A stretch of DNA of 62,911 bases, the filler included. It is 4 parts of 4 records of this genome, joined end to end, with 100 filler letters (N's around TTAATTAATTAA, not from the genome) between each part and the next. Parts side by side here need not be neighbours in the genome. Positions count along the whole stretch, not along the records: positions 43,939 to 62,911 come from SRR31156797_28474; 3 more parts are not named here. One strand, given 5' to 3'. This document shows positions 43,839 through 62,911 of the stretch, in pieces; the stretch's first letter is position 1, and the number at the start of each line of letters is the position of its first letter. The translations under genes were made by a program, and so were the position numbers. The notes below the pieces were generated by a model. It saw only the letters and a program-made list of their open reading frames with translations, was not told where the DNA came from and made no database searches.

Positions 43839-43938
43839 NNNNNNNNNNNNNNNNNNNNNNNNNNNNNNNNNNNNNNNNNNNNTTAATTAATTAANNNNNN
43901 NNNNNNNNNNNNNNNNNNNNNNNNNNNNNNNNNNNNNN
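43839..43938. other. Artificial contig linker
   Basis: N-run / TTAATTAATTAA / N-run. Confidence 0.99.
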
Positions 43939-44022
43939 GAGGGCGACGTATACCTTAAAATCGATAAGGAGCAGGTGGAAAGTCTGCCGGAGTTTGATGT
44001 TAAGGATCTCGACAAAAAATAG
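43939..44022 (+). CDS. 3' fragment of a gene (possibly PRC-barrel type)
   Basis: EGDVYLKIDKEQVESLPEFDVKDLDKK* read from the contig edge. Confidence 0.4.
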   Translation, partial: EGDVYLKIDKEQVESLPEFDVKDLDKK

Positions 44023-44406
44023 GTACTGGTTCAGTAACAAAAGAAGAGAATTTCATTAGTTCCCAGGCTTGCTCAGGAATGAAAGGCTCCTGGCCCTTGA
44101 GGAAGTCGAAGAAGACCTGGACTCTGTCCACCTTGCCCCTGAAATACCACCTCCTCTTACGTATCCGGGGAGGGATAGCCCGCCACCGGACAAATGAGCC
44201 CTGAAAGGACGACATCGAAGAATATGCTGTCCTTTCAGGACTTGAAAATTTCGATCCTTATTCCGGTGGTTGGCCACCGGCTATACGTCTTCTCATGACT
44301 TCCTCCTCTCATTAATTTAAATTCAGCCGAATCCGCAAATTCGTATGAGGAGCCGATATAAATGTTTTTCCCCTTATCATGCCTTGCGCCAGCTAATTGC
44401 AATCGA

Positions 44407-45780: not shown

Positions 45781-45820
45781 GAGTTATACTCCTTTAAATG
45801 CCTAAAATCAGGGCAAGGGT

Positions 45821-47071
45821 TTACAGGTGAAGATATTCCGGCTGCTGTATCAGCTCCATCATCTTGGTATAGAACTTACCGATGGGCACACCATCCATCA
45901 CCCGATGATCAAAGGTAATACTCATGCTCATGATCGGCCTAAGCTGGATCTTCCCCTCAACATTCCAGGGTTTCTCAAATATACCGCCCGGTTGGACGAT
46001 CACCGATTCCGGTTGGTTCAGGACCGGCGTCGATACGGTCCAGCCGGGTGCAAATCCCCCGGTATTGGAAATTGTAATCGTGCCCCCGGTGACATCATCC
46101 AGCGTAAGCTTGCCTTCCCTGGCCCGGGCAATCAAATCTTTTATGCTCCGGCTGATTTCAATAAGAGATTTTTCGGCCGCATTTTTGACGACCGGTACAA
46201 TCAACCCGCTTTCATACTCACCGACATCAAGAGCTGCCGCCACTCCGACATTAATGTCTTCCCAAATCTTGATCTCATTGTCGACCAGCGAAGAATTGAT
46301 CAATGGCACATGTTTGACCGCCTTGACCAGAGCATAAAGCAGGAGGTCCGTAAACGTGATCCGTACGCCGATTTCGTCTTCTTTTTGCAGCAGCGACTTA
46401 CGCAACCGAATCATCTCGGTCATGTCTATTTCACCCATGTAACTTAGCTGAGCGGCAACTGATAAACTGCGATGCATGTGCTCGGCAATGGCCTGGCGCA
46501 TCCCCTCAAGCGGAATGGTCGCTTTGACTCGCTTACCGTCTACGACTTCGCCGGTGAAGACCTCTTCAGTGGGCACGGCTTCGGCAACACCGGTCTCCAC
46601 TGCTTTTAATACATCTTTTCTGACAACCCTCCCGCCCGGACCGGTGCCGACTATTTTGGTAAAGTCCAAATTGTGCTTGATCGCTAATTTTTTGGCCGCC
46701 GGCGAGATTTTCATTTTACCTTTCTTCCTTGATCCGGCCGATGCTGCAACCGACGCCGCGGCAGTTGGAATCACCTCCGCTGCCTCCGTCGCCTCTATTG
46801 CCGGAAGCTTCGCCTGAATTTCAGAGAGCTCCTCCTTTGTTTCGGCAAGCCGGCCTGCCATTTCACCGACCGTTACAACATCTCCCTTCGATGTAAGAAT
46901 GCATAGAAACCCGGAGGCCGGCGCCTGTATTTCGTAAGTTACCTTTTCAGTCTCTATAACCAATACGACTTCATCTTTTTCTACCCAATCGCCTTCGATA
47001 GCTCTCCATTCTGCGATCTTCACTTCTTTCATTGTCATTCCCAATTTAGGAATGAATATTCCATAAGCCAC
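45821..47071 (-). CDS. Dihydrolipoamide acyltransferase (E2)
   Basis: Lipoyl domain (PKLGMTM..IETEKV), E3-binding ISPAAKKLA..GTGPGGRV and catalytic DHRVMDG. GTG start follows GGAGGGA. Confidence 0.94.
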   Translation of the reverse strand: MAYGIFIPKLGMTMKEVKIAEWRAIEGDWVEKDEVVLVIETEKVTYEIQAPASGFLCILTSKGDVVTVGEMAGRLAETKEELSEIQAKLPAIEATEAAEVIPTAAASVAASAGSRKKGKMKISPAAKKLAIKHNLDFTKIVGTGPGGRVVRKDVLKAVETGVAEAVPTEEVFTGEVVDGKRVKATIPLEGMRQAIAEHMHRSLSVAAQLSYMGEIDMTEMIRLRKSLLQKEDEIGVRITFTDLLLYALVKAVKHVPLINSSLVDNEIKIWEDINVGVAAALDVGEYESGLIVPVVKNAAEKSLIEISRSIKDLIARAREGKLTLDDVTGGTITISNTGGFAPGWTVSTPVLNQPESVIVQPGGIFEKPWNVEGKIQLRPIMSMSITFDHRVMDGVPIGKFYTKMMELIQQPEYLHL

Positions 47072-47168
47072 CTGTTCATCTCCCTCCAAAAAATTAGCGT
47101 ATACAGAAAAACAATCAAATAATAGACCAGTTCTTGAGGAATTGTTCTCCCCCTCACTTTATTGCCCG

Positions 47169-48131
47169 TCAGTCCATCATTGACTTTATGGCATGGAAAA
47201 CTTGCTCGGGTTGTGGAATGCAATATTGCTCCATTACCGCGCCGGCAATGGGCATATTGGCTGCACATACCCGCTTCACAGGTGCATCGAGATCATCAAA
47301 CGCCTTCTCCATAATCTGCATACCGATTTCGGCGCCAACTCCGCATCGCTCTGTATCCTCATCTACAACAACCACTCGTCCGGTTTTACGGACTGAAGCG
47401 ATGATGGTATCGATATCGAGGGGTTCCAAGGTACAGGGATCGATCACCTCCACACTCATTTCACCGGCAAGCTTTTCAGCCGCTTGCAGCGCCAAATGCA
47501 CCATATAAGATGTGGCCACCACCGTAACGTCGGTTCCCTCTTTTTTGATGTCGGCCTTCCCGAATGGAATGGTATACTCCTCCATGGGAATATGTTGTTT
47601 CATGCCCATCATTTGTTTATGGAAGAAATACAAAACCGGATTGTTGTCACGGATGGCCGTTTTCATCAAACCCTTCGCATCATACGGCGTGCTGGGCAGC
47701 GCAAGCTTCAGTCCCGGATTGTTTAGAACCAGCGCCGAAGGGATGTGTGAATGCTCGGGGCCTGTTCCGAATCCGCCGCCGGCAACGCCCATAAAAACGC
47801 AAGGCGCATTCACCTTTCCCGCCTGCGCATAGTATTGCTGGGCTGCCTTAAATAAGATCTCGTCCGCAGCACAATATACAAAATCTGCAAAACTGAGATC
47901 GCAAACAGGTCGATAACCGGCTGCCGCCGCTCCAACGGCAGCGCCGCAAATGGCCAGTTCGCTGAGCGGCGCATCCATCACGCGTTCTGGGCCAAACTTC
48001 CGAACCAGACCTTTAGTGGCATTGAATGGTCCCTCCTGAACATTTTCACCGATGACAAAAACAGTTTCATCTCTTTCCATTTCTTCAGCTATGGCTTCGC
48101 TGATTGCCTGCCAATACATTAATTCCCTCAT
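47169..48131 (-). CDS. ThDP-dependent dehydrogenase E1 beta subunit (AcoB/PdhB-like)
   Basis: AIAEEMERD, DAPLSE, PSTPYDAKGL and SVRKTGRVVVVDE. Confidence 0.93.
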   Translation of the reverse strand: MRELMYWQAISEAIAEEMERDETVFVIGENVQEGPFNATKGLVRKFGPERVMDAPLSELAICGAAVGAAAAGYRPVCDLSFADFVYCAADEILFKAAQQYYAQAGKVNAPCVFMGVAGGGFGTGPEHSHIPSALVLNNPGLKLALPSTPYDAKGLMKTAIRDNNPVLYFFHKQMMGMKQHIPMEEYTIPFGKADIKKEGTDVTVVATSYMVHLALQAAEKLAGEMSVEVIDPCTLEPLDIDTIIASVRKTGRVVVVDEDTERCGVGAEIGMQIMEKAFDDLDAPVKRVCAANMPIAGAVMEQYCIPQPEQVFHAIKSMMD

Positions 48132-48146
48132 TCTGCTCCCTCCCTT

Positions 48147-49127
48147 TTAGGCCGCATAAATTATCTTATTGAGGATAGAAGGTTCCGGATATGGGCTTTC
48201 TATGGCAAAGCGTTCGGCTTCCGCAACTTCAGCGTCCGCCTCGCTATTTATTTCATCCGCTTTTTGTTGAGTTAGAACACCGTCTTGCAACAGCTTCTCA
48301 TAAAATAATGCAACCGGATCCCGTTTTTTCCATTCCTCAATTTTCTCTTGGGATCGAGGTTCATAATGGCACACATCCGGTCTTCCTTCCGAATGGGACC
48401 GGAAACGAAAGGTCTTGCACTCGATCAATGAAGGGCCTTCCCCCGCCCGCGCTCTGTCCACTGCCGCTTGCACGGCTTCGTACACAGCAATCACATCCAT
48501 TCCGTCGACGACAACACCCGGCATGTTGTAAGCTTGAGCCATCTCCGCGATATCTTCTATTGCACAAGAATCGCAGGTCGGCGTAAACCATGCCATTTGA
48601 TTGTTTTCGACGACCCAGATGACGGGAAGCTTCCAGCATGCGGCCATGTTCATGGATTCATGGGCCTGACCACGCTGCATACCGCCATCACCCGTAAAGC
48701 AAATCGCTACCTGGCCCTCCCCTCTTTTTTGGGCGGCCAAGGCATAGCCTACGGAAAGGGGAAAGCAGGAACCGATAGTGCCACCCAAGGCCAGAACGCC
48801 ATAATCAGCATCTGCAAGATGCAAACCGGTAATACCCCCGCCCCAACCGGTAGCTTTACCCAAGTGTTCGGCAATGCAGGGTTTTGGATCCAACCCCTTG
48901 CTTAAGGCATAGGGAAGTCCGTGACCGCGATGGTGGACGTATAAATAGTCGTCTTTGCGAAGGAATGTGCAACCACCGACGCCAATGGCCTCATGGCCTT
49001 CACAACTATGGTAAAAGGTCTTGAGTTTGCCTTCTTGAGCCATTTTTATGTTCAATCTGTCGAACTTGCGGGCACGTACAAGGTTCCGATAGAGCTTCAG
49101 CAGTTCATCTTTTTTCAGTTTTTCCAT
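48147..49127 (-). CDS. ThDP-dependent dehydrogenase E1 alpha subunit (AcoA/PdhA-like)
   Basis: GHEA, HRGHG, GDG..ENN ThDP motif and TFRFRSHSEG. Confidence 0.93.
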   Translation of the reverse strand: MEKLKKDELLKLYRNLVRARKFDRLNIKMAQEGKLKTFYHSCEGHEAIGVGGCTFLRKDDYLYVHHRGHGLPYALSKGLDPKPCIAEHLGKATGWGGGITGLHLADADYGVLALGGTIGSCFPLSVGYALAAQKRGEGQVAICFTGDGGMQRGQAHESMNMAACWKLPVIWVVENNQMAWFTPTCDSCAIEDIAEMAQAYNMPGVVVDGMDVIAVYEAVQAAVDRARAGEGPSLIECKTFRFRSHSEGRPDVCHYEPRSQEKIEEWKKRDPVALFYEKLLQDGVLTQQKADEINSEADAEVAEAERFAIESPYPEPSILNKIIYAA

Positions 49128-49204
49128 TATTACCTCCAACACCGGGGATTAAGATCTAAAAGGCGGATATTGCCCGACATGGTCTCCTGTTTCTCAAATA
49201 GCAA

Positions 49205-49684
49205 CTATGCCCGGTTCGTCTTTCGTTGAATAAGCTCAATTAAGACCCCGCCGATATCCGTTGTATCCAGGTAAGCAGCAGCGGAATCGCCGGTTTCGCT
49301 CCGGCCGGATAAAATGGATTTGATTCCCATCTTCTCATACCGCTCCAACCTCTCTTGAATATCATCTACGTCAAAGCCCAGATGGTGGAGCCCTTCGCCG
49401 CGGCTGTCCAAAAAATCATAATAAATGGATTTTTTGCTGATCGGCTGGATCAGTTCCATCTCAATCGTCCCCAAAGAGCAAAACGCCATCCCCATTTTAA
49501 AATCATAATCTACGGGTTTTCCGTATTGGACAAGGTCAACATATTTTAGATTTGGCTTAGCAAATGGACCGATTCCTAAAGCCTCATAATAGGCTATCGT
49601 TTTTTCTAAATCTTGCACTACCACGCCTATTTGGCTGACACTCGGGAGATCCAAGGTTTGCTTTATTTGGCTGTTAAGTTCCAT
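49205..49684 (-). CDS. VOC-family protein (methylmalonyl-CoA epimerase/glyoxalase-like)
   Basis: QIGVVV.D, EMELIQP, GEGLHHLGFDV and IELIQ. Confidence 0.88.
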   Translation of the reverse strand: MELNSQIKQTLDLPSVSQIGVVVQDLEKTIAYYEALGIGPFAKPNLKYVDLVQYGKPVDYDFKMGMAFCSLGTIEMELIQPISKKSIYYDFLDSRGEGLHHLGFDVDDIQERLERYEKMGIKSILSGRSETGDSAAAYLDTTDIGGVLIELIQRKTNRA

Positions 49685-49749
49685 ATCGTTTCTCCTCTCT
49701 TTTTAAATCACTAATTTTCTTCTCCATTCCTTCCATGTTTTAAGTATTC

Positions 49750-50730
49750 CTACGCTTCTTCTTCGAGTCCCAAAAGCATAGCAGGATTCTTCCTGGCCAT
49801 TATATCAATCGCGTCTTCGGATATTCCACATGCCATCAGAATTCTGATGTAAACGCGTAACGCCTCAACAGGAGCATTACTGATGATTTGCCCATAATCT
49901 GTAGAAAGAGTACAGTGTTCTGGTCCTATTTTCATTATTGCATCTGCGATTTCATGTGTATTTTTATTAATGGTGAGGGGATGTAATTCAGCCGCACAAT
50001 AATTTAAATATACCCCCAGTTCTGCCATTTTCATTTGATTCTCAAAAGAGACATCAACACTATACATATGAGGATGATCTAAGATAATTTTCTTAACCCC
50101 TGCAATCTTAGCGGCTTCAACAACGGCAAACATCTCTTCGATGCCTAAATGTCCCAGGGAAAGAATGATGTCTGCTTCTGCAACCATATGGACAATATCG
50201 ACAACTTCAGGAATCAACTTGTCTCCATCAAGCACATAGTCGCCCATCGCTGGCGCACTTTCCTTCCCAATGGATCCAACATGATGAACACCCTTGGTTA
50301 TATGGCTTCTGGCCGTCGTTGTTGGAAGCCAAACACATTTAGCACCAAATTTTATCGCCAGCATAATTGCGTATGGATTTACCCCTCCATAAAGAGGGCC
50401 CATACAAATACCACCAAACAGCCGAACGGGACGTAATTCTCGCTCTTTGGCCCATGCATCGATAGCCTCCTGTGCTATTTTAGCCGGTTCCATTGTTGAA
50501 CAATGATATGATTTCAAAACAATGGCCCTCTGACCCGCATCAGAAGCCTGTTGGGCCAACGGTATAACCCTTATTCGCCCTGATGTCGCGTGAATATGAA
50601 GGTCACTGGTCCCTGCCACAATTTTCACATCCTCCTGTGGCGACCATGGGCTGTCAAGCGTTTCGTCTAAATATTTGTATACTTCCAGTTGGTATTGCTT
50701 TTCTTCTATGGGATCTCCGTTTGCAACCAT
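49750..50730 (-). CDS. TIM-barrel metallohydrolase of unknown substrate (DUF6282-like)
   Basis: DLHIH, AIVLKS, VWLPT, LGHL, DHP, LSTDYGQ and NPAMLLG. Confidence 0.8.
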   Translation of the reverse strand: MVANGDPIEEKQYQLEVYKYLDETLDSPWSPQEDVKIVAGTSDLHIHATSGRIRVIPLAQQASDAGQRAIVLKSYHCSTMEPAKIAQEAIDAWAKERELRPVRLFGGICMGPLYGGVNPYAIMLAIKFGAKCVWLPTTTARSHITKGVHHVGSIGKESAPAMGDYVLDGDKLIPEVVDIVHMVAEADIILSLGHLGIEEMFAVVEAAKIAGVKKIILDHPHMYSVDVSFENQMKMAELGVYLNYCAAELHPLTINKNTHEIADAIMKIGPEHCTLSTDYGQIISNAPVEALRVYIRILMACGISEDAIDIMARKNPAMLLGLEEEA

Positions 50731-50907
50731 TTTATTCTCCTTTCTTTAGTTAACCCCCTGATCTCCATGATCAACCAAACTCATCCGTAAATGTTTGATA
50801 ACTCTTATTTTCGGATAGCCTTCTACTATATCATTCTGTAATATTCCGTCTGGCTTTCTTTTGATAATTTTGTTAGCGATGTCTCTCAGAAAATGAATAC
50901 ATGTTTA

Positions 50908-52227
50908 TCAATTGCTCATTACCATCGGGAGCCAGAGTGAAATTTTGGGAAAAGCAATCAAAATCGCAATCGTAAGGAATTCGAGAACCAGAAAAGGCAT
51001 AGTTCCCCTAAAAACATCTTCTAGAGAAATCGTTTCAGGCGATACCGCTTTAATGACATATACATTGATACCAACGGGCGGTGTGATCATGCCCAATTCG
51101 TTGAATTTGACCAATAAAACCCCGAACCATATTGGATCATACCCGAGCGCGCCAATCACAGGGAAGATGACAGGTAGGGTGACCAACATCATCGAAATCG
51201 TGTCAACAAACATACCAAGTATAAAATATATGGCAATAATCAGTACCAGGACGACAATACGGGGAACAGACCATGCGACAATCGTCTCAGCAAACCAAGA
51301 CGGAATTCCGGCAATTGTAAGCGTAAAAGAAAAGATGCTAGCGCCGATCACCAGAAAAAACAGCATGCTCGATACCGATACTGTTTCGCGGAAGGCTTCC
51401 AGAATGTTTGGCAAAGCCTTCCGCCCCTGGAATAAACCAAACAATAAGGCGACAAAAGCGCCGATTCCAGCGGCTTCCGAAGGTGTAAACGCACCTGAGT
51501 AAATACCTCCCATGATAATCCCTGCCAGGATGAGAATACCCCATATTAGCCTGGTAGATATGACTTTTTCACGCCACGTGGTCTTTTGTCCACTGGGAGC
51601 TAGTTTGGGATTAATTCGGGCTTTGATGATTATGAAAAAAGAGAAAATGAGAAGCGTCAGCAATCCGGGAACAATGCCTGCTAACAGCAAATCTGCAATT
51701 GACGTTTCAGTTACGATCCCATACAGAACGAAAATGACACTGGGTGGAATCATAATCCCAACCAAAGCCCCAGAAGCGACCGTTCCCGTTGCGAACTTTT
51801 TTTCGTAGCCAGCCTCTAACATCTCGGGCAAGGCAATACGCCCCATGGTACCGGCAGTGGCCACACTGGAGCCTGCACAGGCTGCAAACAAACCGCACGC
51901 CCCCATTGTGGCCACGCCTAATCCTCCAGGCAACCAACTCAGCCAAGTAGAAGCCGTCCGATAGGCATTTTTGCTAATGCCAGCGGCAAAAGACAGGTGA
52001 CCCATTAAGATAAACAGCGGCACCGGTAGTAACGACCAGTTGGCCACTTTGGAATACGGAATGGTTTTTAAGGCGGTAAGCATAATACTCGTATCGCCGA
52101 TATACAATAGTCCAACTACCGCTGTAACCATGAGGGCGATGGCAATGGGTATCCGTAAGCAAATTAGAAAGAGCAACCCCATAACCATCACAGCACCGAA
52201 AACTGGGGGAGAAACCATATCAATCAC
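50908..52227 (-). CDS. dctM: TRAP transporter large permease
   Basis: PLFILMG, GSSVAT, IPPS, FTPSEA, DPIWFG and TPPVG. Confidence 0.94.
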   Translation of the reverse strand: MIDMVSPPVFGAVMVMGLLFLICLRIPIAIALMVTAVVGLLYIGDTSIMLTALKTIPYSKVANWSLLPVPLFILMGHLSFAAGISKNAYRTASTWLSWLPGGLGVATMGACGLFAACAGSSVATAGTMGRIALPEMLEAGYEKKFATGTVASGALVGIMIPPSVIFVLYGIVTETSIADLLLAGIVPGLLTLLIFSFFIIIKARINPKLAPSGQKTTWREKVISTRLIWGILILAGIIMGGIYSGAFTPSEAAGIGAFVALLFGLFQGRKALPNILEAFRETVSVSSMLFFLVIGASIFSFTLTIAGIPSWFAETIVAWSVPRIVVLVLIIAIYFILGMFVDTISMMLVTLPVIFPVIGALGYDPIWFGVLLVKFNELGMITPPVGINVYVIKAVSPETISLEDVFRGTMPFLVLEFLTIAILIAFPKISLWLPMVMSN

Positions 52228-52733
52228 GCCTCCTTTTGTCCTTTATTCCAGGCATTAACGGCGTCGTGAACAATTTCGAACAAAGACACCGCGCAAAAAA
52301 CAACCACTCCGATCGCCAGACAGTATCTTGCCGGCCAAACGGGAATTTGTCGCGTCCCGGCCCAGGTTACTTCACCGGCTTGGTACTGGGACCATGCGCT
52401 GCTGATGCTGGCGTATGCTAAAATTAGTAGGCAGGCTGTCGTAAGAGATTTCGTAAAAAGTTGCAGCACGATCTGTATGCGTGGCGGGATTTTATTAAAT
52501 ATAAATTCAACTTTTACATGGATGTCTGTGGTCTCAGCCCATGCGAGTCCCAGAAAGGCAATGAGGACCATTAACATTTCACATATTTCAATGCTGCCCT
52601 CAACTCCCTTTCCGATTAAAAAGCGTGCACCAACATCGGCTGTTGTCAGAACAACAATGCCAAACGCTGAAACCATGCCGATAATGATAAGCGTGTAGGC
52701 AAGGGTTCTGATTTTAGCTGCCAATTTGTCCAC
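52224..52733 (-). CDS. dctQ: TRAP transporter small permease
   Basis: Four TM segments, DVGARF and HVKVEF; between dctP and dctM. Confidence 0.9.
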   Translation of the reverse strand: MDKLAAKIRTLAYTLIIIGMVSAFGIVVLTTADVGARFLIGKGVEGSIEICEMLMVLIAFLGLAWAETTDIHVKVEFIFNKIPPRIQIVLQLFTKSLTTACLLILAYASISSAWSQYQAGEVTWAGTRQIPVWPARYCLAIGVVVFCAVSLFEIVHDAVNAWNKGQKEA

Positions 52734-52836
52734 GTGACTTACACCCCTCTTTGATGAAACAGGCCCTGAAGTATTTGATCAACAAAATATTTTGGAGATC
52801 ATGCCAAATGTCCCTCCACAATTCACCTGTATATTG

Positions 52837-53931
52837 CTACGGGTTTCTGTATTTCGCTAGCACGTCGAACGCGTGGGGCATGATACTTTCAGTTTCATAT
52901 TTCTTGGTTCTTTCAGATAAGAGTTTGTAAAGTTCGCGGGCCTCTTTCTCCATGCCTCTTTTTTTCATCTCATCAAAATATAGTTTTTCTCCGGCGGGAA
53001 CACATAATTGTCGCGCCTTTCGGACTTCCTCATCACTCCAGCGAATGAATTGCATATCTGTTTTGGCTAACAACTGGGCACTCGAATCAATTTCCTCATT
53101 GTAATGTTCCGCATAGAATTTCCAGGATTCGTCAGCCATGTCGTCAATCAGCTTCTTAAGGTCGCTTGGAAGAGAATTATAGAATTTCAGGGACATACAA
53201 TTACCAACGGATGGTGAGAACCTCTCACCGGTATCAACACAATATTTTACAATTTCCGGCATCTTGAGGCCATAAAAAGAAGAAAAATAAACACAGGTTG
53301 CGGCGTCGATTAAGCCGCGTTCCAATCCCTCTGGTATATCGCTAAAAGGCATCGCCACAGGTGTTGCTCCCCAGCTTTGAATAATCGCCGCAAACGGGCC
53401 ATAAGCTCTTATTTTCCAGCCGCTCATGTCCTCAACTTTGTAGGCCGGCTTGCGACATGCCAGCGGTGCTCTTTCTGGTACTGCAAGGATCAAAAGCTTC
53501 AATCCGGCTTCTTCTAATTGTTTTCTCAAGGGCTGATATTCCTTACTCATTTCCATTACGGCCCGAGACAAGGCGTCTCCCTTCATAGATAAGAAGGGTA
53601 GGTCGGCTACCCGAAATAGCGGTACCACCCCCGGCTGATACCCAAAACCAACATCGCCTGTCTGGGCAATATTCTTCGCCACATAGGTCGGTATATCCTT
53701 AGCACCGGCCAGTGTTCCGCTATGGAAAAATTTAACCTCTATTTTTCCTTGCGACCGCCTTTCTAATTCTTTATACCACTTGATAACCACCTTGGCAGGG
53801 CCGATAACCGAAGGTCCATAAGAGGCATATTTGATCGTAATCTTTTTTGATTTCCCGGCGCAAGCCATTGAATTAGTAATAATTAGTCCACCTATAATAA
53901 CAATAAAAATAAACAAAAAAGGTTTTTTCAT
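52837..53931 (-). CDS. dctP: TRAP transporter substrate-binding protein
   Basis: Signal peptide, DLPF, GWKIRA and GATPVAMPFSDIPEGLERGLID. Confidence 0.92.
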   Translation of the reverse strand: MKKPFLFIFIVIIGGLIITNSMACAGKSKKITIKYASYGPSVIGPAKVVIKWYKELERRSQGKIEVKFFHSGTLAGAKDIPTYVAKNIAQTGDVGFGYQPGVVPLFRVADLPFLSMKGDALSRAVMEMSKEYQPLRKQLEEAGLKLLILAVPERAPLACRKPAYKVEDMSGWKIRAYGPFAAIIQSWGATPVAMPFSDIPEGLERGLIDAATCVYFSSFYGLKMPEIVKYCVDTGERFSPSVGNCMSLKFYNSLPSDLKKLIDDMADESWKFYAEHYNEEIDSSAQLLAKTDMQFIRWSDEEVRKARQLCVPAGEKLYFDEMKKRGMEKEARELYKLLSERTKKYETESIMPHAFDVLAKYRNP

Positions 53932-54149
53932 GCTGTTAATTTTATCCTCCTTTAGACTTTTTAGTTAATGTTATTCGATAGTCATCCCTTAAACTCACAA
54001 TTAACTTTATAGCTCTAACAAAACATCGAAGTTTAGCTATTGAACAGTATGAAGTCGTTTTAACTAAGAGAGAGCGAAAAAAATTAGTTACTCAGCAACC
54101 TTGAAGTCCAGAAATTCAGTTCAGGTGTCCAAAGAAACCCTATTTTAGT

Positions 54150-54196
54150 TGTATAGCTTACTTATGATTCACCGACAATGACGGAAACCCGTCATT
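54150..54196 (-). promoter_or_regulatory. Operator copy 1 plus promoter of the dctP-lpdA operon
   Basis: AATGACGG-AAAC-CCGTCATT (54177-54196); on the minus strand it runs into TTGTCG-N17-TATACA. Confidence 0.82.
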
Positions 54197-54414
54197 TTTG
54201 CATTGTTATTGGTGATATTTGGAAGTTTAATATTGGTGACGAACCAAATCCTGTTCCCGCTGAAAGAATGAACGATAGGTACCTGATGGATTAACAGCCT
54301 TGGTTGCGAGGCTAAAGATTTAAGTTCGTAACGTTGGGGTATAAGGGTCCGTACACTTTAAAAATATGAAGGCTCTACTTTGTTGTCGACGAAGTAACGA
54401 AGTACTCCTTTTGG

Positions 54415-55167
54415 TTACGTAAGCCTTTCAATGACCTTGGTGCCAATACCTGCCAAAATTCCTCCGTCCACAGGAATTGCGGCGCCTGTGATATAGGCAG
54501 TTTCCGGGGCGGCCAAAAAATGGTAGACGCCGACAATATCTTCTATTTCCCCGATCCTTCCGAGAGGTGCCAGCACTTTCACCATTTCGATTTCCGGGCC
54601 TGGATTTTTTGCGAGCATTTCAGTAAGAATGCTGCCGGGACAGACCGCATTAACCCGGATACCACGGTCTCCTAATTCAATTGCTGCCGTCTTGGTCAGA
54701 CTGATGATGGCAGCCTTGCCGGCTGAATATGGTCCATGGCCCGGTACGCTAATCTGGCCCGCTATAGACGCAGTATTGATGATCGCCCCCCCGTCACGCA
54801 TGTATCGTGGGCCATGTTTGATTCCGTGGTAAACGCCTTTAAAATTGATATCAAGGGTACGATTCAAATCTTCCATCTTTTCATCGACGAGCATCCGACC
54901 GGTGTTCCCCGCACCGGCATTATTGATGATAACATCGATAGGGCCGTATCGGGCATGCACTTCCTCCAGTACCTTTTGAACTTCATTCTCTATGGCCACA
55001 TCAGCTGAAAAGGCCACCGCACCAATTTCCTTGGCAACGGCGGTGCCATCACGGCGTCCGACAATAGACACCTCAGCCCCGGCTGTCACGAAACGCGCCC
55101 CTACCGCCCGGCCGATGCCGGCCGTACCTCCGCAAATTACGGTTTTCATCCCATTGAGAGCAAACAT
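54415..55167 (-). CDS. SDR-family oxidoreductase
   Basis: GGTAGIG, NNAG, YSAGK and IRVNAVCPG. Confidence 0.94.
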   Translation of the reverse strand: MFALNGMKTVICGGTAGIGRAVGARFVTAGAEVSIVGRRDGTAVAKEIGAVAFSADVAIENEVQKVLEEVHARYGPIDVIINNAGAGNTGRMLVDEKMEDLNRTLDINFKGVYHGIKHGPRYMRDGGAIINTASIAGQISVPGHGPYSAGKAAIISLTKTAAIELGDRGIRVNAVCPGSILTEMLAKNPGPEIEMVKVLAPLGRIGEIEDIVGVYHFLAAPETAYITGAAIPVDGGILAGIGTKVIERLT

Positions 55168-55186
55168 GCATCGATCTACTTTTTTT

Positions 55187-55890
55187 CTAAATAGACGCCA
55201 TTACTTCTTGGATACTTTTTTCAAGGACATCAAATATCTCATCCATATCACTTTCGGTAACGATAAGGGGAGGTCCAACAGCGATCCAGTGGGTGCTGGC
55301 CCTGAGTAGAAGTCCGTTTTTGAGACACGCCTTGAATATCTTTTTTCCAATACCAATCTCTTCAGAAAAATGTTCCTTGGTCTTTTTGTCCTGAACGAAT
55401 TCAGCAGCAACCATAAGTCCTTTGCCTCCAGCCCTTTCAAGGTAGTACTTTTGTGACTCTAACATGCTGAATCTATGTGACACATTGATTTACCTGTCAG
55501 CAACGCCGTGCAAATGCCTTGCAGAAAACATCGATAATGCGGTCTCTTCCCTACCCACTAAGGCATTATCGCGGTAGGGATATGACGGTTTTGAAGCGAA
55601 TGAAAAAGGTTAAATTAACATCCCCCGAAAATATGCCAAATAAAACCATCAGTTAGGAAAGGCAAGTACTACCTTGAAAGGGATGGTCCTTTGCCTCTAA
55701 TGTCACCGATTATTCCAAAACGCTCATCCAGCTTCTTGTATTTGTCTTTAACATAATCCTCCATACGCTTTGTATTACCGGGCAAGTCTTGTTCAATAAG
55801 CTCTTTAATAGCAGCAATGCCTGCAGCAGCTGAAAGCCCGTTGTAGGTAAAAGTGTACCCGTCAATAATTGGATTGACTCCCTTTGATTC
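55187..55890 (-). pseudogene. Class III aminotransferase remnant (C-terminal third), interrupted by a MITE
   Basis: Removing 55429-55685 and one TSD copy restores GYTFTYNGLSAAAGIAAIKEL..FGIIGDIRGKG|LMVAAEFVQDK..GPPLIV. The N-terminal part, including the PLP lysine, is missing. Confidence 0.88.
55429..55685. mobile_element. 257-bp MITE (IS4 family, IS231-like ends)
   Basis: 22-bp TIRs CA(G/T)CCCTTTCAAGGTAGTACTT at 55429-55450 and 55664-55685; exact 12-bp TSD GTCCTTTGCCTC at 55417-55428 and 55686-55697; no transposase. Confidence 0.93.
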
Positions 55891-55996
55891 AAGTAAGACT
55901 GCAGCCTTGCGCAGGTGTTACGCCACTCTCATTCCCCTATGCAACAATGGAAAGAGGGGTAAAATGTGGCAAAAACGGTGTCCGGCTTAATGGCCC

Positions 55997-57442
55997 TTAC
56001 TCCTGTGCCTTGGCTTCAGCAAAGGCGGCATAAAAGCTCTCGGTTAACTGTGTGAGTGCTTGGCTGTATGGTAGGTGAAAGCAGTTTGCAAAGACGTTAT
56101 CATCAGCAGATTCCATAACAGTTTTGGTATGAGAAAAGTTGACGAAGCCTTCAAACCCTGAGTGACACCCTATACCGCTATTGCCACAGCCGCCAAACGG
56201 TGCGTTTGCATGAACCGTGTGCATCGCTATGCCATTAACGCAAAAGCCGCCCGAAATTGTCCCTTTGATCACCTTATCAGCCACCGCCTTATCTTTGGTG
56301 TAGACATGGGCCGCTAGTGGGCGTTCGTGGGTGTTGATATAGTTCATGGCCTCGTCTAAGGTTTTATACGTCTTGATCGGTAAAATGGGCCCGAAAGTTT
56401 CTTCCTGCATCACAAGCATATTTTCATCCGGGTTCACAATCAGCGTCATTGGAAACTGGCGCAGCTCCGGGTTCGGCGCTTCATCATGGGTGAAGATAAC
56501 GTCTGCGCCACCGGTCCGAGCGTCTTCAATGTACGATAATAACCGATCATAGTGCCGCGCATTGATAATGCCGGTCACTTCCGGATTACCGACAAATTGG
56601 GGATACGCATTTTTAAGAATTTTTGTGGCTATTGTTACAAACTGGTCAACTTTATTCTCAGGCAGCAGAACATAATCCGGACTGGTACACACCTGACCAC
56701 TTTTAACCATTTTAATAGCCAGGATGTCCCCGATCGCTTTCTCATCAATGCTGTCTTCGGTAAAAATTGTGGGGTTTTTTCCTCCCAATTCAAGCGTTAC
56801 CGGGGTCAGATTTTCACTGGCTGCCCTCATAACATGCCGAGCCACTGCAGAGTTGCCGGTATACATCAAATGGTTCCATGGCATAGCCGCAAAAGCCTTT
56901 GCCAGTTCAACATCTCCGGTAACCACAGCCAAAACCTCCGGTGAAAAGTACTCGGCCACCGCTTCCCGCATGAGGTTGGACGTGGCCGGGGAACTTTCTG
57001 ACGCTTTGGCAATAACCCGATTTCCGGCGGCCAGCATATCAACTACCGGTACTAACAGGCATTCCACGGGGAAATTCCAGGGGGCCAGGTTCCCGATAAC
57101 GCCGACCGGCTGATGCATCACGTACAACTCGGACGAGCCATGAACCGCCGGGTCAACCTCTCTCACCTGTGGCGCCATCCATTGCGGCAGCTGCGATCGA
57201 TAATACATTGATCTGGCAATAACAGCCCCGGGCTCAAGCAAATCCGAAACGACCTTGAGGTGATTACCAAAATCGTCATTGATGGCCTCCGCTATTCTAG
57301 CGCGGTAGGCAAGCAACATATTTTCCAGCGTGATCAGTCTTTCGGCCCGTTCTTCATAAGACGGATAAATGTTTTTAAAAAAAGCCTCTACCTGTTGATC
57401 AAAAAGTCTTTTTAACTCTTCTACGCTTGTGTACTCAGACAT
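55997..57442 (-). CDS. Aldehyde dehydrogenase (class 3 / coniferyl aldehyde dehydrogenase-like)
   Basis: PWNFP, YTGN, LELGGKNP, SGQVCTSPDY, EETFGP and PFGG.G.SG.G. Confidence 0.93.
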   Translation of the reverse strand: MSEYTSVEELKRLFDQQVEAFFKNIYPSYEERAERLITLENMLLAYRARIAEAINDDFGNHLKVVSDLLEPGAVIARSMYYRSQLPQWMAPQVREVDPAVHGSSELYVMHQPVGVIGNLAPWNFPVECLLVPVVDMLAAGNRVIAKASESSPATSNLMREAVAEYFSPEVLAVVTGDVELAKAFAAMPWNHLMYTGNSAVARHVMRAASENLTPVTLELGGKNPTIFTEDSIDEKAIGDILAIKMVKSGQVCTSPDYVLLPENKVDQFVTIATKILKNAYPQFVGNPEVTGIINARHYDRLLSYIEDARTGGADVIFTHDEAPNPELRQFPMTLIVNPDENMLVMQEETFGPILPIKTYKTLDEAMNYINTHERPLAAHVYTKDKAVADKVIKGTISGGFCVNGIAMHTVHANAPFGGCGNSGIGCHSGFEGFVNFSHTKTVMESADDNVFANCFHLPYSQALTQLTESFYAAFAEAKAQE

Positions 57443-57489
57443 AATGATATCTCCTTGTCAAATTATACAATGTATGCGTATAGATCCAT

Positions 57490-57733
57490 CGCCTGTTTCT
57501 CCTAATCCCAACTTCGGCAGTTGTAAGCAATTTTAAAGGGCTTTTTAAACCACTTGATATTATACATAGCGGCCCGGCCGGAAGATCACAGGGCATCTTG
57601 AAGGTCGATTTAGCCGCTTCATTTTCCACGCCTTAGACGATTTTGGCACAATCCCTTTTGGCGTTGTTTTTGCCCTGAATAACCCTTATTGTTTACTCAC
57701 CACTGTCGAACGCAAGCGGAGACTGGCATCATC
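57490..57733 (-). pseudogene. Possible degraded TctC/Bug substrate-binding protein remnant
   Basis: RBS GGAGGT-ATG near 57730, then broken frames reading VVSKQ*GLFRAKTTPKGIVPKSSKA/VENEAAKSTFK, resembling the Bug C-terminal GLFAPKGTP..IV..L..A motif. Confidence 0.35.
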
Positions 57734-57785
57734 ACCTCCCTTCTTTGGCATAGCTTGTTAAAAAGCTGCTACACCTGCGTGACAT

Positions 57786-57809
57786 TGTCAATGACGGAAA
57801 TCCGTCATT
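57786..57809 (-). promoter_or_regulatory. Operator copy 2 plus -35 of the ALDH-SDR unit
   Basis: AATGACGG-AAAT-CCGTCATT (57790-57809), overlapping minus-strand TTGACA (57791-57786). Confidence 0.82.
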
Positions 57810-57892
57810 TTCAGTCAAGTACAGTAGAGGATTATTAAAATTTCTAGAAAGGGAGGTAGCATGGAAAGGAAACCTTAATAGTGTATTTTTGA

Positions 57893-59029
57893 CTATCTAT
57901 TAGGCCAGTACAGCGGAGAAATCAGATTTAAAACCCGATGCAGCACGCTGGTGCGGTTTCTAACTTGTAGTTTGGTATAAATAGTCCGGAGATGGTTTTC
58001 CACCGTAAGTACGCTAATGAAAAGACGAGCTCCTATCTCGGTGTTTTTCAACCCCAGAAAAAGCAAGCTAATTACCTCAAGCTCGCGCTTGCTCAATCCC
58101 ATTCGCTGCAACGGTTCGGAATGCGATAAAAATGACTCATGGGGTAAAAAGCTGATCAAAAACATGGGCGGATCATCCTTCTGATTCAAGGTCAAGAGAT
58201 TTATGGATAATCGATTCCGTCCTTTGTCCTGAGAAATTTCGATCGTTTGAAAGTCCTCATCAAAAATCCTTTCATTTGTATCCATCAACTGGCGGCAACG
58301 CTCGGTGAGGCCGGAAGGTAACTGAAAATCCCCAGGAGGTTCGCTGGAGCCTCTCCCCTGCCATCCGGAGAACACCTTGAAAAAACCATCGGAAACATAA
58401 ACAGGCTCCAAGTCTTGGTCCAATATGAGCAACGCTTGGCATGGCATTTGTGTCATTAAGATATCTTTTAGTTTATCTTGGATTTTTAGGTGCTTAGTAA
58501 TAATAACGTTCTGAACGGCTTGGGTAAGATGGGGAGCGATTAATTCCGCCTGGATTCGGTCCTTCAGCGAAAATGGCTTTTGTTTTGGTGATCGATGTAT
58601 AAAAACGATACCCAAAAATTGTGATCCCAACTTCAAGCGGATCTGCATTTCGTAATGAATGAAAAGCTGTTGCATGTAATCCTTATAATATTCGGTAGAT
58701 ACCAAATCATCTAAAGAAATAAAATCGGTGGTCGTTGCCACTGTGGGCTCAGGTTTCAGACCTGACCTGATTGGATCCATAGGATGAAAGTAATCGGCAT
58801 ATCGACATATTTCTTCATTGCTTATTCCATGGTAGATACCTCCATGCATGTCCGCGAGTTTCCCTTCTTTAATCAGACAAAATCCTCCTGAAATGCATTC
58901 GAAATATTGTATTAACCATTGAAGCACTTCTTTCCCTAATTCATAAAAATCGCTGAATCGTAAAACCCTCTGAGACAAAGAAAGGATGTCCTTTAACTCT
59001 TTTTTACTGAGATTTATTGGATCGTCCAT
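57893..59029 (-). CDS. LuxR-type HTH regulator with N-terminal GAF/PAS-like sensor
   Basis: LSKRELEVISLLFLGLKNTEIGARLFISVLTVENHLRTIYTKLQVRNR; N-terminal Y.DYFHPMDP..TEYYKDYM sensor region; no receiver domain. Confidence 0.92.
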   Translation of the reverse strand: MDDPINLSKKELKDILSLSQRVLRFSDFYELGKEVLQWLIQYFECISGGFCLIKEGKLADMHGGIYHGISNEEICRYADYFHPMDPIRSGLKPEPTVATTTDFISLDDLVSTEYYKDYMQQLFIHYEMQIRLKLGSQFLGIVFIHRSPKQKPFSLKDRIQAELIAPHLTQAVQNVIITKHLKIQDKLKDILMTQMPCQALLILDQDLEPVYVSDGFFKVFSGWQGRGSSEPPGDFQLPSGLTERCRQLMDTNERIFDEDFQTIEISQDKGRNRLSINLLTLNQKDDPPMFLISFLPHESFLSHSEPLQRMGLSKRELEVISLLFLGLKNTEIGARLFISVLTVENHLRTIYTKLQVRNRTSVLHRVLNLISPLYWPNR

Positions 59030-59171
59030 TTCACGCCCTCCTTTGCCTGAAAGCTTAAGGAATTACCTATCTCGCCGTCAATAGTAAAATCGAAAGTTTA
59101 TCGCATTTTGTTCAATTTAAGCTTTTTTAAACAGCATATTTTAAACTATACAAATGTTTGGATGAACACGA

Positions 59172-59217
59172 AATGACGGGTTCCCGTCATTGACATTGAT
59201 AACCAGCCCATTATAAT
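59172..59217 (+). promoter_or_regulatory. Operator copy 3 plus sigma70 promoter of the aminotransferase pair
   Basis: AATGACGG-GTTC-CCGTCATT (59172-59191), overlapping TTGACA (59190-59195)-N16-TATAAT (59212-59217). Confidence 0.88.
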
Positions 59218-59298
59218 CTTTTGGACGACAATAGGTGCATTAAAACACTTTCAATTTTATTTTATTTAACCTGTTTAAGCTCTACTGAAAGGGAAACC

Positions 59299-60618
59299 AT
59301 GTTTGACCACTCTAAGTCAATTATACACTATCGAGATGCCCGCCAATATCTTGCCGGAGGCGTAGGCAGTGATGTGCGGTTACTCCCGGGGATGGAGCCT
59401 ATCTGCTTTGAGAGAGGATCCGGATCACGTATGTATGATGTCGATGGCAATGAATACATTGACTACATTTTGGCTTTAGGCCCTTTGATACTAGGGCACT
59501 GCCCTTCACAGATCGTGGCAGCAGTCAAAAAACAGGTTGAATTGGGGTCCATTTTCGGGGCCGCCGCCAGCGGCGAAGAACATCTGGCAAAGATGGTATG
59601 TGGATGTCTACCATCCGTTGACTTGGTTAGTTTTACAAACAGCGCTTCCGAGGCCGTTCACATGGCACTTCGACTTGCGCGCGCCTTTAACGGCAAGACC
59701 AAGGTGCTGAAATTCGAGGGCTGCTATCATGGGTGGATTGAAGATGTAATGTACAGCATTCACCCCGAGTCGCTCAATGTGATGGGCACGGAAAACAATC
59801 CACAGCCTGTTCCGGAAAGCATAGGGCTGTCAAGGAACACGCATTCAAATGTACTCATTGCCCCCTGGAACCAGCCGGATGTGTTGAAAAAGATTTTTCG
59901 CCGTCATGGGCACGAAATTGCAGCCTTAATCCTAGAGCCGATTCCGGCCAATAACGGCGTCATGCCGCCCCATGCCGGGTTTTTGGAATTTTTGCGCGAG
60001 CTGACATCATTACATGAAAGCCTTCTCGTCTTTGATGAGACCATCACCGGCTTCAGGGTTGATCTGGGGGGCGCCCAAGCCTATTACGACGTTCATCCCG
60101 ATCTTACCGTCTTTGGTAAAGCCGTCGGAGGGGGATATCCCATCGCCGGATTTGGCGGACGCAAAGAAGTGATGGACTTAATCACCAAGAGAGAGGTCAA
60201 TCGCATGGGAACATACAACTCCAATTCTTTGTGTGTTGCTGCCACAATAGCCGTTCTGGAGGAGCTCTACCGTGAAAATGGCGCGGCCATCAAACACATG
60301 ATCGCCATGGGTGAGAGGCTAATTGAAGGAATGAAGAGATTGTTTGCAGATCACGGTATTCCCTTAACCATTCAAGGCATGGGATCACTGTTCAGCACGT
60401 TTTTCACGCAAGAGCCCATCGATACCTATCGTGACACGTTTAAAATTAATACAGAGCTCTATCAACGATTCTGGACCACACTCCTGGGAAAGGGGGTGCG
60501 TATCATTTACTCAGCCCGGGCTACATGGTTGCTTTCAACGGCACATACAAAAGCAGACATAGACGAGACGCTTCAAAAAGTGTCCGATACCCTTAAGGAA
60601 CTCAAAAAAAATAAATAA
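59299..60618 (+). CDS. Class III PLP enzyme, glutamate-1-semialdehyde aminomutase-like
   Basis: YDVDGNEYIDY..GPLILGH, KFEGCYHG, FDETITGFR and FGKAVGGGYP. Confidence 0.92.
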   Translation: MFDHSKSIIHYRDARQYLAGGVGSDVRLLPGMEPICFERGSGSRMYDVDGNEYIDYILALGPLILGHCPSQIVAAVKKQVELGSIFGAAASGEEHLAKMVCGCLPSVDLVSFTNSASEAVHMALRLARAFNGKTKVLKFEGCYHGWIEDVMYSIHPESLNVMGTENNPQPVPESIGLSRNTHSNVLIAPWNQPDVLKKIFRRHGHEIAALILEPIPANNGVMPPHAGFLEFLRELTSLHESLLVFDETITGFRVDLGGAQAYYDVHPDLTVFGKAVGGGYPIAGFGGRKEVMDLITKREVNRMGTYNSNSLCVAATIAVLEELYRENGAAIKHMIAMGERLIEGMKRLFADHGIPLTIQGMGSLFSTFFTQEPIDTYRDTFKINTELYQRFWTTLLGKGVRIIYSARATWLLSTAHTKADIDETLQKVSDTLKELKKNK

Positions 60619-60966
60619 AAAAATCGACTATTTGCCAGGACATAAAAAGGGAAGCCATATGAAGAAATTCAGAGATGGATAACGTTTTGATCCGGTGTTG
60701 CTTAGAGGAGATTAGCCCGCTTCTGGAAATTGAGCTTTTTACTGTGTATTGTCTGAAAATCGATTTGAAAAAAATAACGATTTCCCGTTATTGACACCCA
60801 ATGAACAGGCCAGTCTCCATGCATATTTGGACAGCTTACAAAGATGCTCCGGACTTCGGCGGATTGATGTGCCCCGAAGTCAGGGCTTTGCTAAAGGGCA
60901 TCGCCGGGTTAGGCGAAATTATCGGGTGCGATATAACGGCCTGATGCTGAAAGGAGTACTAAAATA

Positions 60967-62325
60967 ATGGAAGCTGACAAATTGAATGAATTGAGGGACA
61001 AGGTTTATAAGGCCTATGCAGACAAGACACCAAACACTATGCGATTATTCGAAAGAGCGAAGAGTAGCATGGTAGGCGGGATTACCTCAAGTAAGAGGTA
61101 CTTCCCTCCCTATCCACTCTTTATGGTCCGCGGTCAGGGCGACAGGATTTATGATGTCGACGGCAATGAATACATCGACTGCTTCCTCAATGCAGGGCCG
61201 CTCCTTCTAGGACACAACCACCCCGAAGTTATGGATGTGGTCAGGTCCGAACTCGACCGAGGGCTGTTGATTCTGCATCTGGATATTACCGTCGAATTTA
61301 CGGAATTATTGAAAGAACTCTACCCTTGCGCCGAGAGAGTACGGCTGGCCAACACCGGTACAGAGGCCTGTCTTTTCGCGGCGAGGATAGCCCGCTCATA
61401 CACGGGGAAAAAAAAACTGATCAAGTTCCACGGCCATTTCCATGGCCTGGCTGACCAATTCTGCGTAGGTGGATACGGCACAAACGGTGGGATTGATTCG
61501 AACGGCGTTACCGCAGCTATGATCGAGGATATGGTAATGCTTTCCTACGGCGACATCGAAGCAGCCAAAAAGAAGCTGGATGAGAATGATGACATCGCTG
61601 GTGTGATCCTAGACCCCCAAATGCACGCGGGAGGTATCTGGCCGGCTTCGGTGGAATACCTAAAAGAACTCCGTATGTTGACCGAGGAAAAGGGTGTGGT
61701 TCTCATATTTGATGAGGTCATCACAGGTTTCCGCCTAGCACCTGGTGGCGCCCAGGAGTATTTTGGGGTATCTCCCGATCTAATCATCCTATCGAAGGCC
61801 ATCGCAGCCGGCGGCAAACTGGCCGTGGTTGCCGGCAAAGAGGAAGTCATGTCCGTCTTGACGCCCCAGGGAATGGAAAATGCACCCCGGAAAGCGGTTC
61901 TACAGGGTGGTACATTTATTGACGGCACAATTGGAGTCGCTGCTGGTATAGCCGCCCTCAAGGTGTACAAACGACTCGGCAAACAGGGAGCGTATGGGAA
62001 GTTGTTCGCCCGAGCCCAGAAACTGAGAAAAGGACTTGAAGAGGCTTTTGCTTACCGGAACATTCCATTCAAGATGAATCATCTTGGCCCGTCCCTTAAA
62101 ATGTTTTTTACCGAAAAACAGATTAGCTATGAATCCATGTGCAATCTGGACTACACTCTCCACGATCTCTTTTGTCTGAGCATGATTTCCGAAGGTATTT
62201 TCCTAACCCTACCGACTTTGCGATCCATCTACCTTTCGTTCATGCACACCGACGAAGATATAGACAAAATTATCGAAGTGGCTAACAAGTGTTTGGACAA
62301 ATACTGCTTCGCAGAATATGTCTGA
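60967..62325 (+). CDS. Second class III PLP enzyme, GSA aminomutase-like
   Basis: YDVDGNEYID..GPLLLGH, NTGTEA, KFHGHFHG, FDEVITGFR and LSKAIAAG. Confidence 0.92.
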   Translation: MEADKLNELRDKVYKAYADKTPNTMRLFERAKSSMVGGITSSKRYFPPYPLFMVRGQGDRIYDVDGNEYIDCFLNAGPLLLGHNHPEVMDVVRSELDRGLLILHLDITVEFTELLKELYPCAERVRLANTGTEACLFAARIARSYTGKKKLIKFHGHFHGLADQFCVGGYGTNGGIDSNGVTAAMIEDMVMLSYGDIEAAKKKLDENDDIAGVILDPQMHAGGIWPASVEYLKELRMLTEEKGVVLIFDEVITGFRLAPGGAQEYFGVSPDLIILSKAIAAGGKLAVVAGKEEVMSVLTPQGMENAPRKAVLQGGTFIDGTIGVAAGIAALKVYKRLGKQGAYGKLFARAQKLRKGLEEAFAYRNIPFKMNHLGPSLKMFFTEKQISYESMCNLDYTLHDLFCLSMISEGIFLTLPTLRSIYLSFMHTDEDIDKIIEVANKCLDKYCFAEYV

Positions 62326-62338
62326 GCGTACAGAAGAA

Positions 62339-62720
62339 TACTACTACCCGGTTAAAAACAATTAATATTAAAGGACAATTGTCCTGAATGCGGTGACATG
62401 TGTTTTATTGGAACAGGATCAAAAAGTTGCCACAAGCTCTGTCTGTTGAATAGGCTTACGTGAAGAAAAGAACATTTTTCGTTTTTACCTTCATGAACCA
62501 TTTGAAATCCATGTACGCCCGATCCATCACGACGATGGAGTAAGGGGGGGCGCTTGAGGGTTCTGGCAAACATCATGGCTGCCATCTGTCCCCAGCGTGT
62601 GAGGGATCGGCATTTTCGTTTCGGTTGAAAACCTTTTCGCTCGATCGCGTCGAACGTGTTTCGATCAAGAAGTTGTAGCAACTGACTGAAGATTGTGTTA
62701 AAGTGACTAATGGTCTGAAT
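62339..62720 (-). mobile_element. Internally deleted IS4-family element (transposase remnant)
   Basis: (ATT)SHFNTIFSQLLQLLDRNTF..RSLTRWGQMAAMMFA, a DUF4372-like N-terminus, joined to C-terminal-like SLFNRQSLWQLFDP..GQLSF; end-like CTACTACCCGGTTAAAA at 62341. Confidence 0.72.
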
Positions 62721-62911
62721 TTCCTTTCCTTTAGTGATGTTATCGTGATTCCACTATAATATGAAAGAATGATTCGGGCCTGCCTTTCTCAGTGCCTCGG
62801 AGGCTATTGGGCATCTTTTAACCCAAAGCCATAGAACTCAGGGTGGATAAAAAGAAGTTTCAAAAAATGAAGCCTTTCATCCAGGAAGGGTGGTATGCGG
62901 GGATACCGGCC

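Follow-up and report, generated by a model that had tools for sequence, protein, structure and literature searches.

A recurrent 20-bp palindrome as the predicted operator of an adjacent GAF-PAS-LuxR-type regulator of catabolic genes

Which protein reads a 20-bp palindrome that recurs in front of catabolic genes beside an orphan LuxR-type regulator, and what does it do there? We addressed this question in a 62,911-nt stretch of DNA (hereafter, the window), in which N spacers at 11933, 21804 and 43839 join separate contigs and genes across a spacer are not necessarily neighbours. The spacers have the form N44-TTAATTAATTAA-N44, the tag being read at 43839 and the N pattern being alike at 11933 and 21804. 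Our comparisons, all made on sequences and predicted structures, indicate that the palindrome is probably the operator of the adjacent GAF-PAS-LuxR helix-turn-helix (HTH) protein, which would activate four local catabolic units from the class II position under the control of a ligand.

The palindrome and its promoter register

A pattern scan of the whole window found exact matches to AATGACGG-N4-CCGTCATT at 54177-54196, 57790-57809 and 59172-59191, the three perfect copies that a preliminary description of this DNA had reported. Its statement that the motif occurs nowhere else in the window held for exact copies and overlooked a degenerate fourth copy at 60773-60792, which carries three mismatches, scores 24.8 bits with a position weight matrix and has GACA directly after it. 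When up to three mismatches were allowed, the window gave 4 matches against 0.29 expected, a number reached in none of 100 shuffles. The matrix built from the four copies gave them scores of 24.8-32.5 bits, against 11.6 for the best of the remaining positions in the window. Among 19 distinct perfect palindromes with 8-bp arms, only the operator palindrome occurred more than once. Every copy precedes a catabolic unit, as had been proposed, except that there are four sites for four units and not three for three. Because all of the sites lie on one contig of a joined window (the last, 43939-62911), the existence of a genomic "island" cannot be assessed; what had been given that name is simply an entire 19-kb contig. 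The copies and the best promoter are as follows.

54177-54196, minus strand: operator copy 1, perfect; overlaps the -35 hexamer TTGTCG, with -10 TATACA at 17 nt; 246 nt to dctP
57790-57809, minus strand: operator copy 2, perfect; overlaps the -35 hexamer TTGACA, -10 unclear; 348 nt to the aldehyde dehydrogenase start
59172-59191, plus strand: operator copy 3, perfect; in the divergent gap between the regulator gene and aminotransferase 1; -35 TTGACA; 108 nt to the ATG at 59299
59190-59217, plus strand: sigma-70 consensus promoter TTGACA-16-TATAAT (promoter 3), 12/12 matches; it begins with the final two bases of copy 3
60773-60792, plus strand: operator copy 4, degenerate; overlaps the -35 hexamer TTGACA, weak -10; 175 nt to aminotransferase 2

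As claimed earlier, the last TT of each perfect palindrome is the TT of a -35 hexamer (TTGTCG, TTGACA and TTGACA) oriented to the downstream genes, and copy 4 likewise ends in the TT of its TTGACA, towards aminotransferase 2. A consensus -10 element is present at promoter 3 only; copy 1 has TATACA, and the best -10 elements of copies 2 and 4 match at no better than 2/6 positions.

In a comparison across genomes, 41 sites were oriented towards the non-regulator gene. A -35 match of at least 4/6 was found at 40 of the 41 sites towards the target and at 3 facing away, and a match of at least 5/6 at 25 and 0, respectively. A G directly followed the box in 41/41 sites, including 24 for which the search pattern had no G at that position, and an A-tract preceded the box on the gene strand. 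The -10 signature peaked at a 17-nt spacer (19 of 41 sites, against 1-7 at other spacers), with a mean match of 2.95/6 at the best spacer, so that most -10 elements are weak. Box and -35 element overlapped by a fixed two bases in the 41 sites, which puts the box centre at -42.5 to -43.5 when the start is predicted 7 nt after the -10 element. On these predicted starts the sites have the geometry of class II activator sites, which are centred near -42 and overlap or abut the -35 element, in agreement with the position near -43 given in the preliminary description. The conservation of one register over the -35 element at 41 sites therefore favours class II activation.

Association of the palindrome with one group of LuxR-type regulators

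The candidate reader of the box is encoded between copies 2 and 3, copy 2 lying 84 nt past the stop of its gene.

57893-59029, minus strand: 378-aa one-component regulator; GAF-like at residues ~1-190, PAS-like at ~195-295, LuxR/GerE HTH at 311-364
57986-58015, minus strand: codons of the predicted recognition helix, residues 339-348, SVLTVENHLR

We approached the association of box and regulator from the motif side, scanning 185,579 species genomes with the pattern alone. The scan returned 61 loci on 58 contigs. Since this is about the number of matches expected by chance (40-69), only the association between box and regulator counts as evidence. A full-length homolog of the regulator lay within the fetched flank at 12 of the 61 loci (9 contigs, all from Desulfobacterota-type genomes), mostly a few hundred bases from the site. 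A tenth contig, from an Anaerolineales genome, carried five sites and a homolog 8.5 kb from the site, bringing the total to 10 of 58 motif-selected contigs. The gene set of the Anaerolineales locus is close to that of the window, with two HemL-like aminotransferases, an aldehyde dehydrogenase, E1/E2 genes and a short-chain dehydrogenase. Whole-genome scans of ten motif-selected genomes yielded 22 sites and 2 control matches. The preliminary description had proposed such a genome-wide scan; the motif proved not to be scattered, as 14 of the 16 sites in the 8 genomes with a full-length homolog were on the regulator's contig. The box was also retained at three loci whose target genes differ (L044, L098 and L105).

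From the protein side, a box was called at a score of at least 15 bits within 1.5 kb. In a class-wide sample, in which 33 of 209 genomes matched, the best 30 loci were fetched and 5 motif-selected loci were then dropped, the box stood beside 5 of 8 regulators with a TV[ED]NH recognition helix and beside none of 17 with T[VI]KKH; one further TVDNH locus had a 14-bit site at the expected place. A phylum sample (12 of 401 genomes matched) gave no box beside 13 non-TVENH regulators, two of which recur in the class sample. We then took 80 metagenome loci chosen by the helix pattern ISxxTVENHL, 50 of which had at least 300 nt on both flanks. Of the 80, 18 had the box. The other 62, some of which lay on short contigs, had none within 1.5 kb, and on this count we rejected the simple rule that a TVENH helix implies the box. 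The residue before the Thr split the 50 well-flanked loci: the box was found at 14 of 15 [YHF]TVENH loci and at 0 of 35 [RK]TVENH loci. Column-permuted control matrices gave a match in no more than 0.1 of trials per locus. The P values obtained for helix and box (0.001 and 2e-11) overstate the case, because the split was noticed in the data before it was counted and because the loci are related. Box and LuxR-HTH subfamily thus co-occur whether one starts from the motif (10 of 58 contigs) or from the protein (14/15 against 0/35), which supports the pairing originally suggested for this locus.

The regulator and its likely mode of action

The protein had been described as LuxR-HTH/GAF-like, and both domains were recovered, but a PAS-like middle domain had been missed. 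The GerE profile (PF00196) matched residues 311-364 with 54.4 bits against a cut-off of 23.5, placing the protein in the LuxR/GerE HTH superfamily, and the same domain was found in 127 of 127 aligned family members. For the N-terminal domain, a Pfam GAF match was obtained in 31 of the 127 members, and a profile search matched it to the GAF-A domain of phosphodiesterase 6C (E 6e-5). The AlphaFold2 model, calculated from the 127 sequences, has three domains and a mean pLDDT of 89.8. We assign the middle domain as PAS-like more cautiously, from its modelled strand-helix order, a PAS match in 2 of 127 members and phytochrome matches. A Response_reg match was absent from the window regulator and from the aligned members, and no acyl-homoserine lactone (AHL) synthase was found among the main open reading frames (ORFs) of the contig, both as reported earlier. 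The regulator is the sole LuxR-HTH ORF on its contig, the other 14 main ORFs giving no regulator-family match in a family profile search. A profile search with E below 1e-30 returned 464 representatives at 50% identity, and the family was seen mainly in Desulfobacterota genomes. Ten family clusters that were looked up bore generic names only, where they were named.

In the mechanism that we propose, a regulator dimer would bind the two 8-bp arms, centred at about -42.5 to -43.5. A small metabolite would bind the GAF-like domain, whereupon sigma-70 polymerase would be recruited from the class II position, the bound dimer contacting sigma region 4 at the overlapped -35 element and rescuing the mostly weak -10 elements. 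The gene content points to an amine/2-oxoacid (or acetoin-like) degradation route, of which the effector would be a substrate or an intermediate, and not to an AHL.

The same protein might instead use the same box as a repressor, its dimer blocking sigma at the -35 element until released by the effector, a possibility already raised because promoter 3 is close to consensus. Promoter 3 is indeed perfect (12/12), which weighs towards repression, and EsaR provides a precedent for a LuxR-type repressor that binds and represses without ligand (PMC3376562). The register, however, is identical at 41 sites and appears again in a sister clade whose box has a different sequence. Steric repression does not require such base-exact spacing. 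In addition, only two bases of the -35 element are covered and most -10 elements are weak. We consequently prefer activation, with promoter 3 as the exception, and consider repression unlikely. That another, global or unlinked, regulator binds the box and the LuxR-type gene is a mere neighbour is very unlikely. The window covers its genome only in part, and in one genome (G601) a site occurs with no full-length homolog, but whole-genome scans found 1-4 sites per genome, concentrated on the regulator's contig as described above; moreover, the box sequence changes along with the recognition helix and the box persists despite different target genes.

Two further explanations concern the nature of the repeats and of the ligand. 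In every copy a stem of 7-8 bp can form (-5.5 to -14.4 kcal/mol), and copy 1 looks like a terminator on the plus strand, features that RNA hairpins, terminators or remnants of mobile repeats would share. The T-run, however, is on the untranscribed strand and becomes the upstream A-tract on the gene strand, the flanks are unrelated except for the promoter hexamers, variants disrupt the pairing yet keep the register, and an Rfam search of the contig gave no match. We rejected the terminator or hairpin reading on the strand of the T-run and the behaviour of the variants, and regard any non-protein origin as extremely improbable. It is scarcely credible, finally, that the regulator should be a LuxR solo of quorum sensing, responding to AHLs through a lux-box-like site. 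The 20-bp box with lux-box geometry, the presence of RhlR, SdiA and CviR among the top Foldseek matches to the model, and a Tyr..Tyr..Asp-Pro pattern conserved in the family would fit such a protein. AHL receptors carry the invariant residues W57, Y61, D70, P71, W85 and G113 (PMC4338825). By-eye alignment puts Y77 (Y/F/W), F81 (Y/F), D85 and P86 of the family at the corresponding positions, with a Tyr as the equivalent of W57 and a spacing from the second aromatic residue to the Asp of 4 instead of 9. Furthermore, SdiA, RhlR and CviR matched the HTH only in a profile search, whereas the N-terminus matches GAF-A of phosphodiesterase 6C and, in 31 of the 127 members, GAF; the 25 Pfam families listed, out of 31 for the 127 members, do not include the autoinducer-binding one; and the PAS-like domain is additional. 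Because the sequence match is confined to the HTH and the AHL residues are not kept in identity or spacing, the regulator is not a LuxR solo in the strict sense.

Several observations weigh against assigning the window box to the adjacent regulator as an activator. The window protein has Leu before TVENH, whereas Y, H or F stands there in 17 of the 18 metagenome loci with a box, and the Leu class falls outside the Y/H/F versus R/K comparison. In a quick IQ-TREE tree the protein forms a long unsupported branch. Single-sequence locus searches of species-genome and metagenome contigs found no close ortholog, so that its link to the box rests on relatives with ~25-35% identity. A TVENH clade of 18 rows has no box at the threshold, nor do two well-flanked loci (L119 and L174), and a perfect site occurs in G601, which lacks a full-length homolog. 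Kinship among the loci makes the counts overstate independence, and L116 appears to repeat a motif-selected genome. Lastly, at 2 of the 41 sites no ORF lies within 600 nt in the direction in which the site was oriented, and promoter 3, at 12/12, has no obvious need of an activator.

The regulator and its box can be set beside several known systems. Published accounts describe the lux box as an inverted repeat of 20 bp with its centre near -42.5 (PMC3376562, PMC4338825). The present system shares with Vibrio fischeri LuxR/lux box and with SdiA-type solos the LuxR/GerE HTH, a 20-bp inverted repeat and a GAF-like ligand-binding fold, but the window protein has no autoinducer-binding sequence match, has a PAS-like domain, is 378 aa long instead of about 240, and would control catabolic enzymes and transporters, with no synthase among the main ORFs of its contig. 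Like the Streptomyces PAS-LuxR proteins PimM and CfaR, it would be a one-component LuxR-HTH pathway activator with a palindrome at or overlapping the -35 element. According to the published account, PimM sites typically overlap the -35 box and have the consensus CTVGGGAWWTCCCBAG (PMC4380410). The central GG-AWWT-CC of that consensus agrees with many sites here, and the agreement ends there: the PimM box has 16 bp and other outer arms, and PimM has no GAF domain and acts on antibiotic biosynthesis in actinomycetes. PAS-LuxR proteins consist of an N-terminal PAS domain and the HTH only, whereas in the window protein the PAS-like domain is in the middle and the N-terminal one is GAF-like. NarL, ComA, DegU and VraR gave the best sequence matches to the HTH among solved structures, and some response regulators of this NarL/FixJ type, with TVENH or TVDNH helices, adjoin the same box; unlike them, the window protein is not switched by phosphorylation, because it has no receiver domain. 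By description only, it can be likened to Corynebacterium RamA, a GAF-LuxR HTH global regulator of carbon catabolism with non-palindromic sites, and to Klebsiella AcoK, a large ATP-binding LuxR activator of the acetoin dehydrogenase operon, whose target the E1/E2/E3 genes beside most homologs here resemble. The mechanism itself is not new but textbook, as with the lux box and PimM. Searches of open-licence literature turned up no description of the family or of the operator motif. The result is best seen as a well-supported regulon prediction, by a known mechanism, for an unstudied family, and it gives this large family a predicted operator and a likely mode of action.

Target genes, related boxes and minor features

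The four units behind the operator copies are the following.

44407-53931, minus strand: unit behind copy 1; TRAP transporter genes dctP-dctQ-dctM, DUF6282, a VOC/glyoxalase-fold protein, and E1 alpha, E1 beta, E2 and E3 of 2-oxoacid/acetoin dehydrogenase type
54415-57442, minus strand: unit behind copy 2; aldehyde dehydrogenase (55997-57442), broken class III aminotransferase (~55187-55926) and short-chain dehydrogenase (54415-55167)
59299-60618, plus strand: HemL-like class III aminotransferase 1, behind copy 3; start placed by a purine-rich site before the ATG
60967-62325, plus strand: HemL-like class III aminotransferase 2, behind copy 4

Orientation and spacing suggest that the genes of the copy 1 unit are co-transcribed. 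None of the target enzymes reached a substrate-specific NCBIfam cut-off; aminotransferase 1 was barely above that of the broad HemL subfamily (406 against 398), and no solved relative of DUF6282 was found. Across 27 loci with box-bearing or top-scoring homologs, some of them closely related, E1 alpha was present in 23 and aminotransferases in 2, so the conserved core is the thiamine-dependent dehydrogenase complex; to this core the window would add an amine-to-aldehyde-to-acid branch. The box marks the genes that belong to a single uncharacterised catabolic route, at whose centre there is usually a dehydrogenase complex of 2-oxoacid/acetoin type, and offers a direct way to the substrate of this route, through the compound that switches on a reporter. 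At L105 (8364-15087), a box-bearing homolog stands with a caprolactamase/hydantoinase-like pair, a HemL-like aminotransferase and a thiamine-dependent enzyme, genes that hint at lactam or omega-amino acid breakdown.

The regulators with a T[VI]KKH helix have a palindrome of their own, AA(G/T/C)TATAC-TTTC-GTATAAT(A/T), found at 18 sites in 17 of 21 loci. The hexamer that starts with its last two bases is TAGACA (13 sites), TTTACA (4) or TGGACA (1), the same -35 register as that of the window box; the -10 peak is weaker (6/18) and the loci are close relatives. This second box was found neither in the window nor in the nine TVENH loci checked. In the clade (L186-L202, L066, L074) it lies mostly just downstream of the regulator gene, and four larger loci have aldehyde dehydrogenases nearby. 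For the two TVENH sister groups and the small TVETH and TVKNH groups, palindromes were sought de novo, and none made a convincing box.

The window box is also found beside other kinds of protein. It, or a close variant, adjoins four LuxR-HTH proteins of ~250 aa with SEFTVENH helices (L139, L142, L147, L169), where the variant ends in CCGTCACT; alcohol dehydrogenase-like or TonB-receptor genes adjoin it at two of these loci. Furthermore, it adjoins two response regulators with TVENH/TVDNH helices, from Prevotella and Verrucomicrobiota. The Prevotella locus (L039 1281-6020, genome G602) has four copies, next to the gene of a NarL-type response regulator whose helix reads TVENH, and these are the only matches of that genome. 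Bacteroidota promoters have a -33 TTG at a characteristic spacing. At two of the four Prevotella sites, TAnnTTTG, the sequence reported for the Bacteroidota -7 box (PMC9723704), lies 19-20 nt after the TTG that ends the site.

These cases raise the broader idea, for and against which we see the evidence as evenly balanced, that the family embodies a natural recognition code of LuxR-type helices. In such a code a small number of helix positions would determine the operator: [YHF]-TVENH would read TGACGG and T[VI]KKH would read TATAC half-sites regardless of the sensor domain, be it GAF-PAS, the shorter 250-aa form or a receiver (Prevotella, Verrucomicrobiota), with the box locked to the sigma-contact element even at a Bacteroidota promoter. 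If it were true, the helix alone would predict operators for many unstudied LuxR-HTH proteins, and orthogonal activator-operator pairs and metabolite sensors for anaerobes would come within reach. Two clades that differ in helix and box and share one register provide a clean helix-swap test of LuxR-HTH specificity, and this covariation of helix and operator is the part that most deserves experiment.

A few minor features complete the picture. On the minus strand at 59050-59082 a candidate promoter of the regulator gene, TTGACG-18-TAAGCT, has its -35 element within an operator-like half-site, a weak hint of autoregulation. The long leader of copy 2 (57443-57790, minus strand) contains an 11-codon ORF preceded by a strong ribosome-binding site, and the hexamer TATAAT occurs twice between copy 2 and the aldehyde dehydrogenase start; this leader is possibly a gene remnant or a second promoter. 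In G601 the perfect match (L020 6002-6021), which lies between dctP and dctQ, continues outwards as a longer, GC-clamped hairpin and is probably an RNA hairpin or a chance match. Within the copy 2 unit, the class III aminotransferase remnant, which also lacks its N-terminal part, is interrupted at 55417-55697 by an insertion of ~260 bp resembling a miniature inverted-repeat transposable element, with 23-nt terminal inverted repeats (55428-55450/55664-55686, 96% complementary) and a flanking 12-bp direct repeat.

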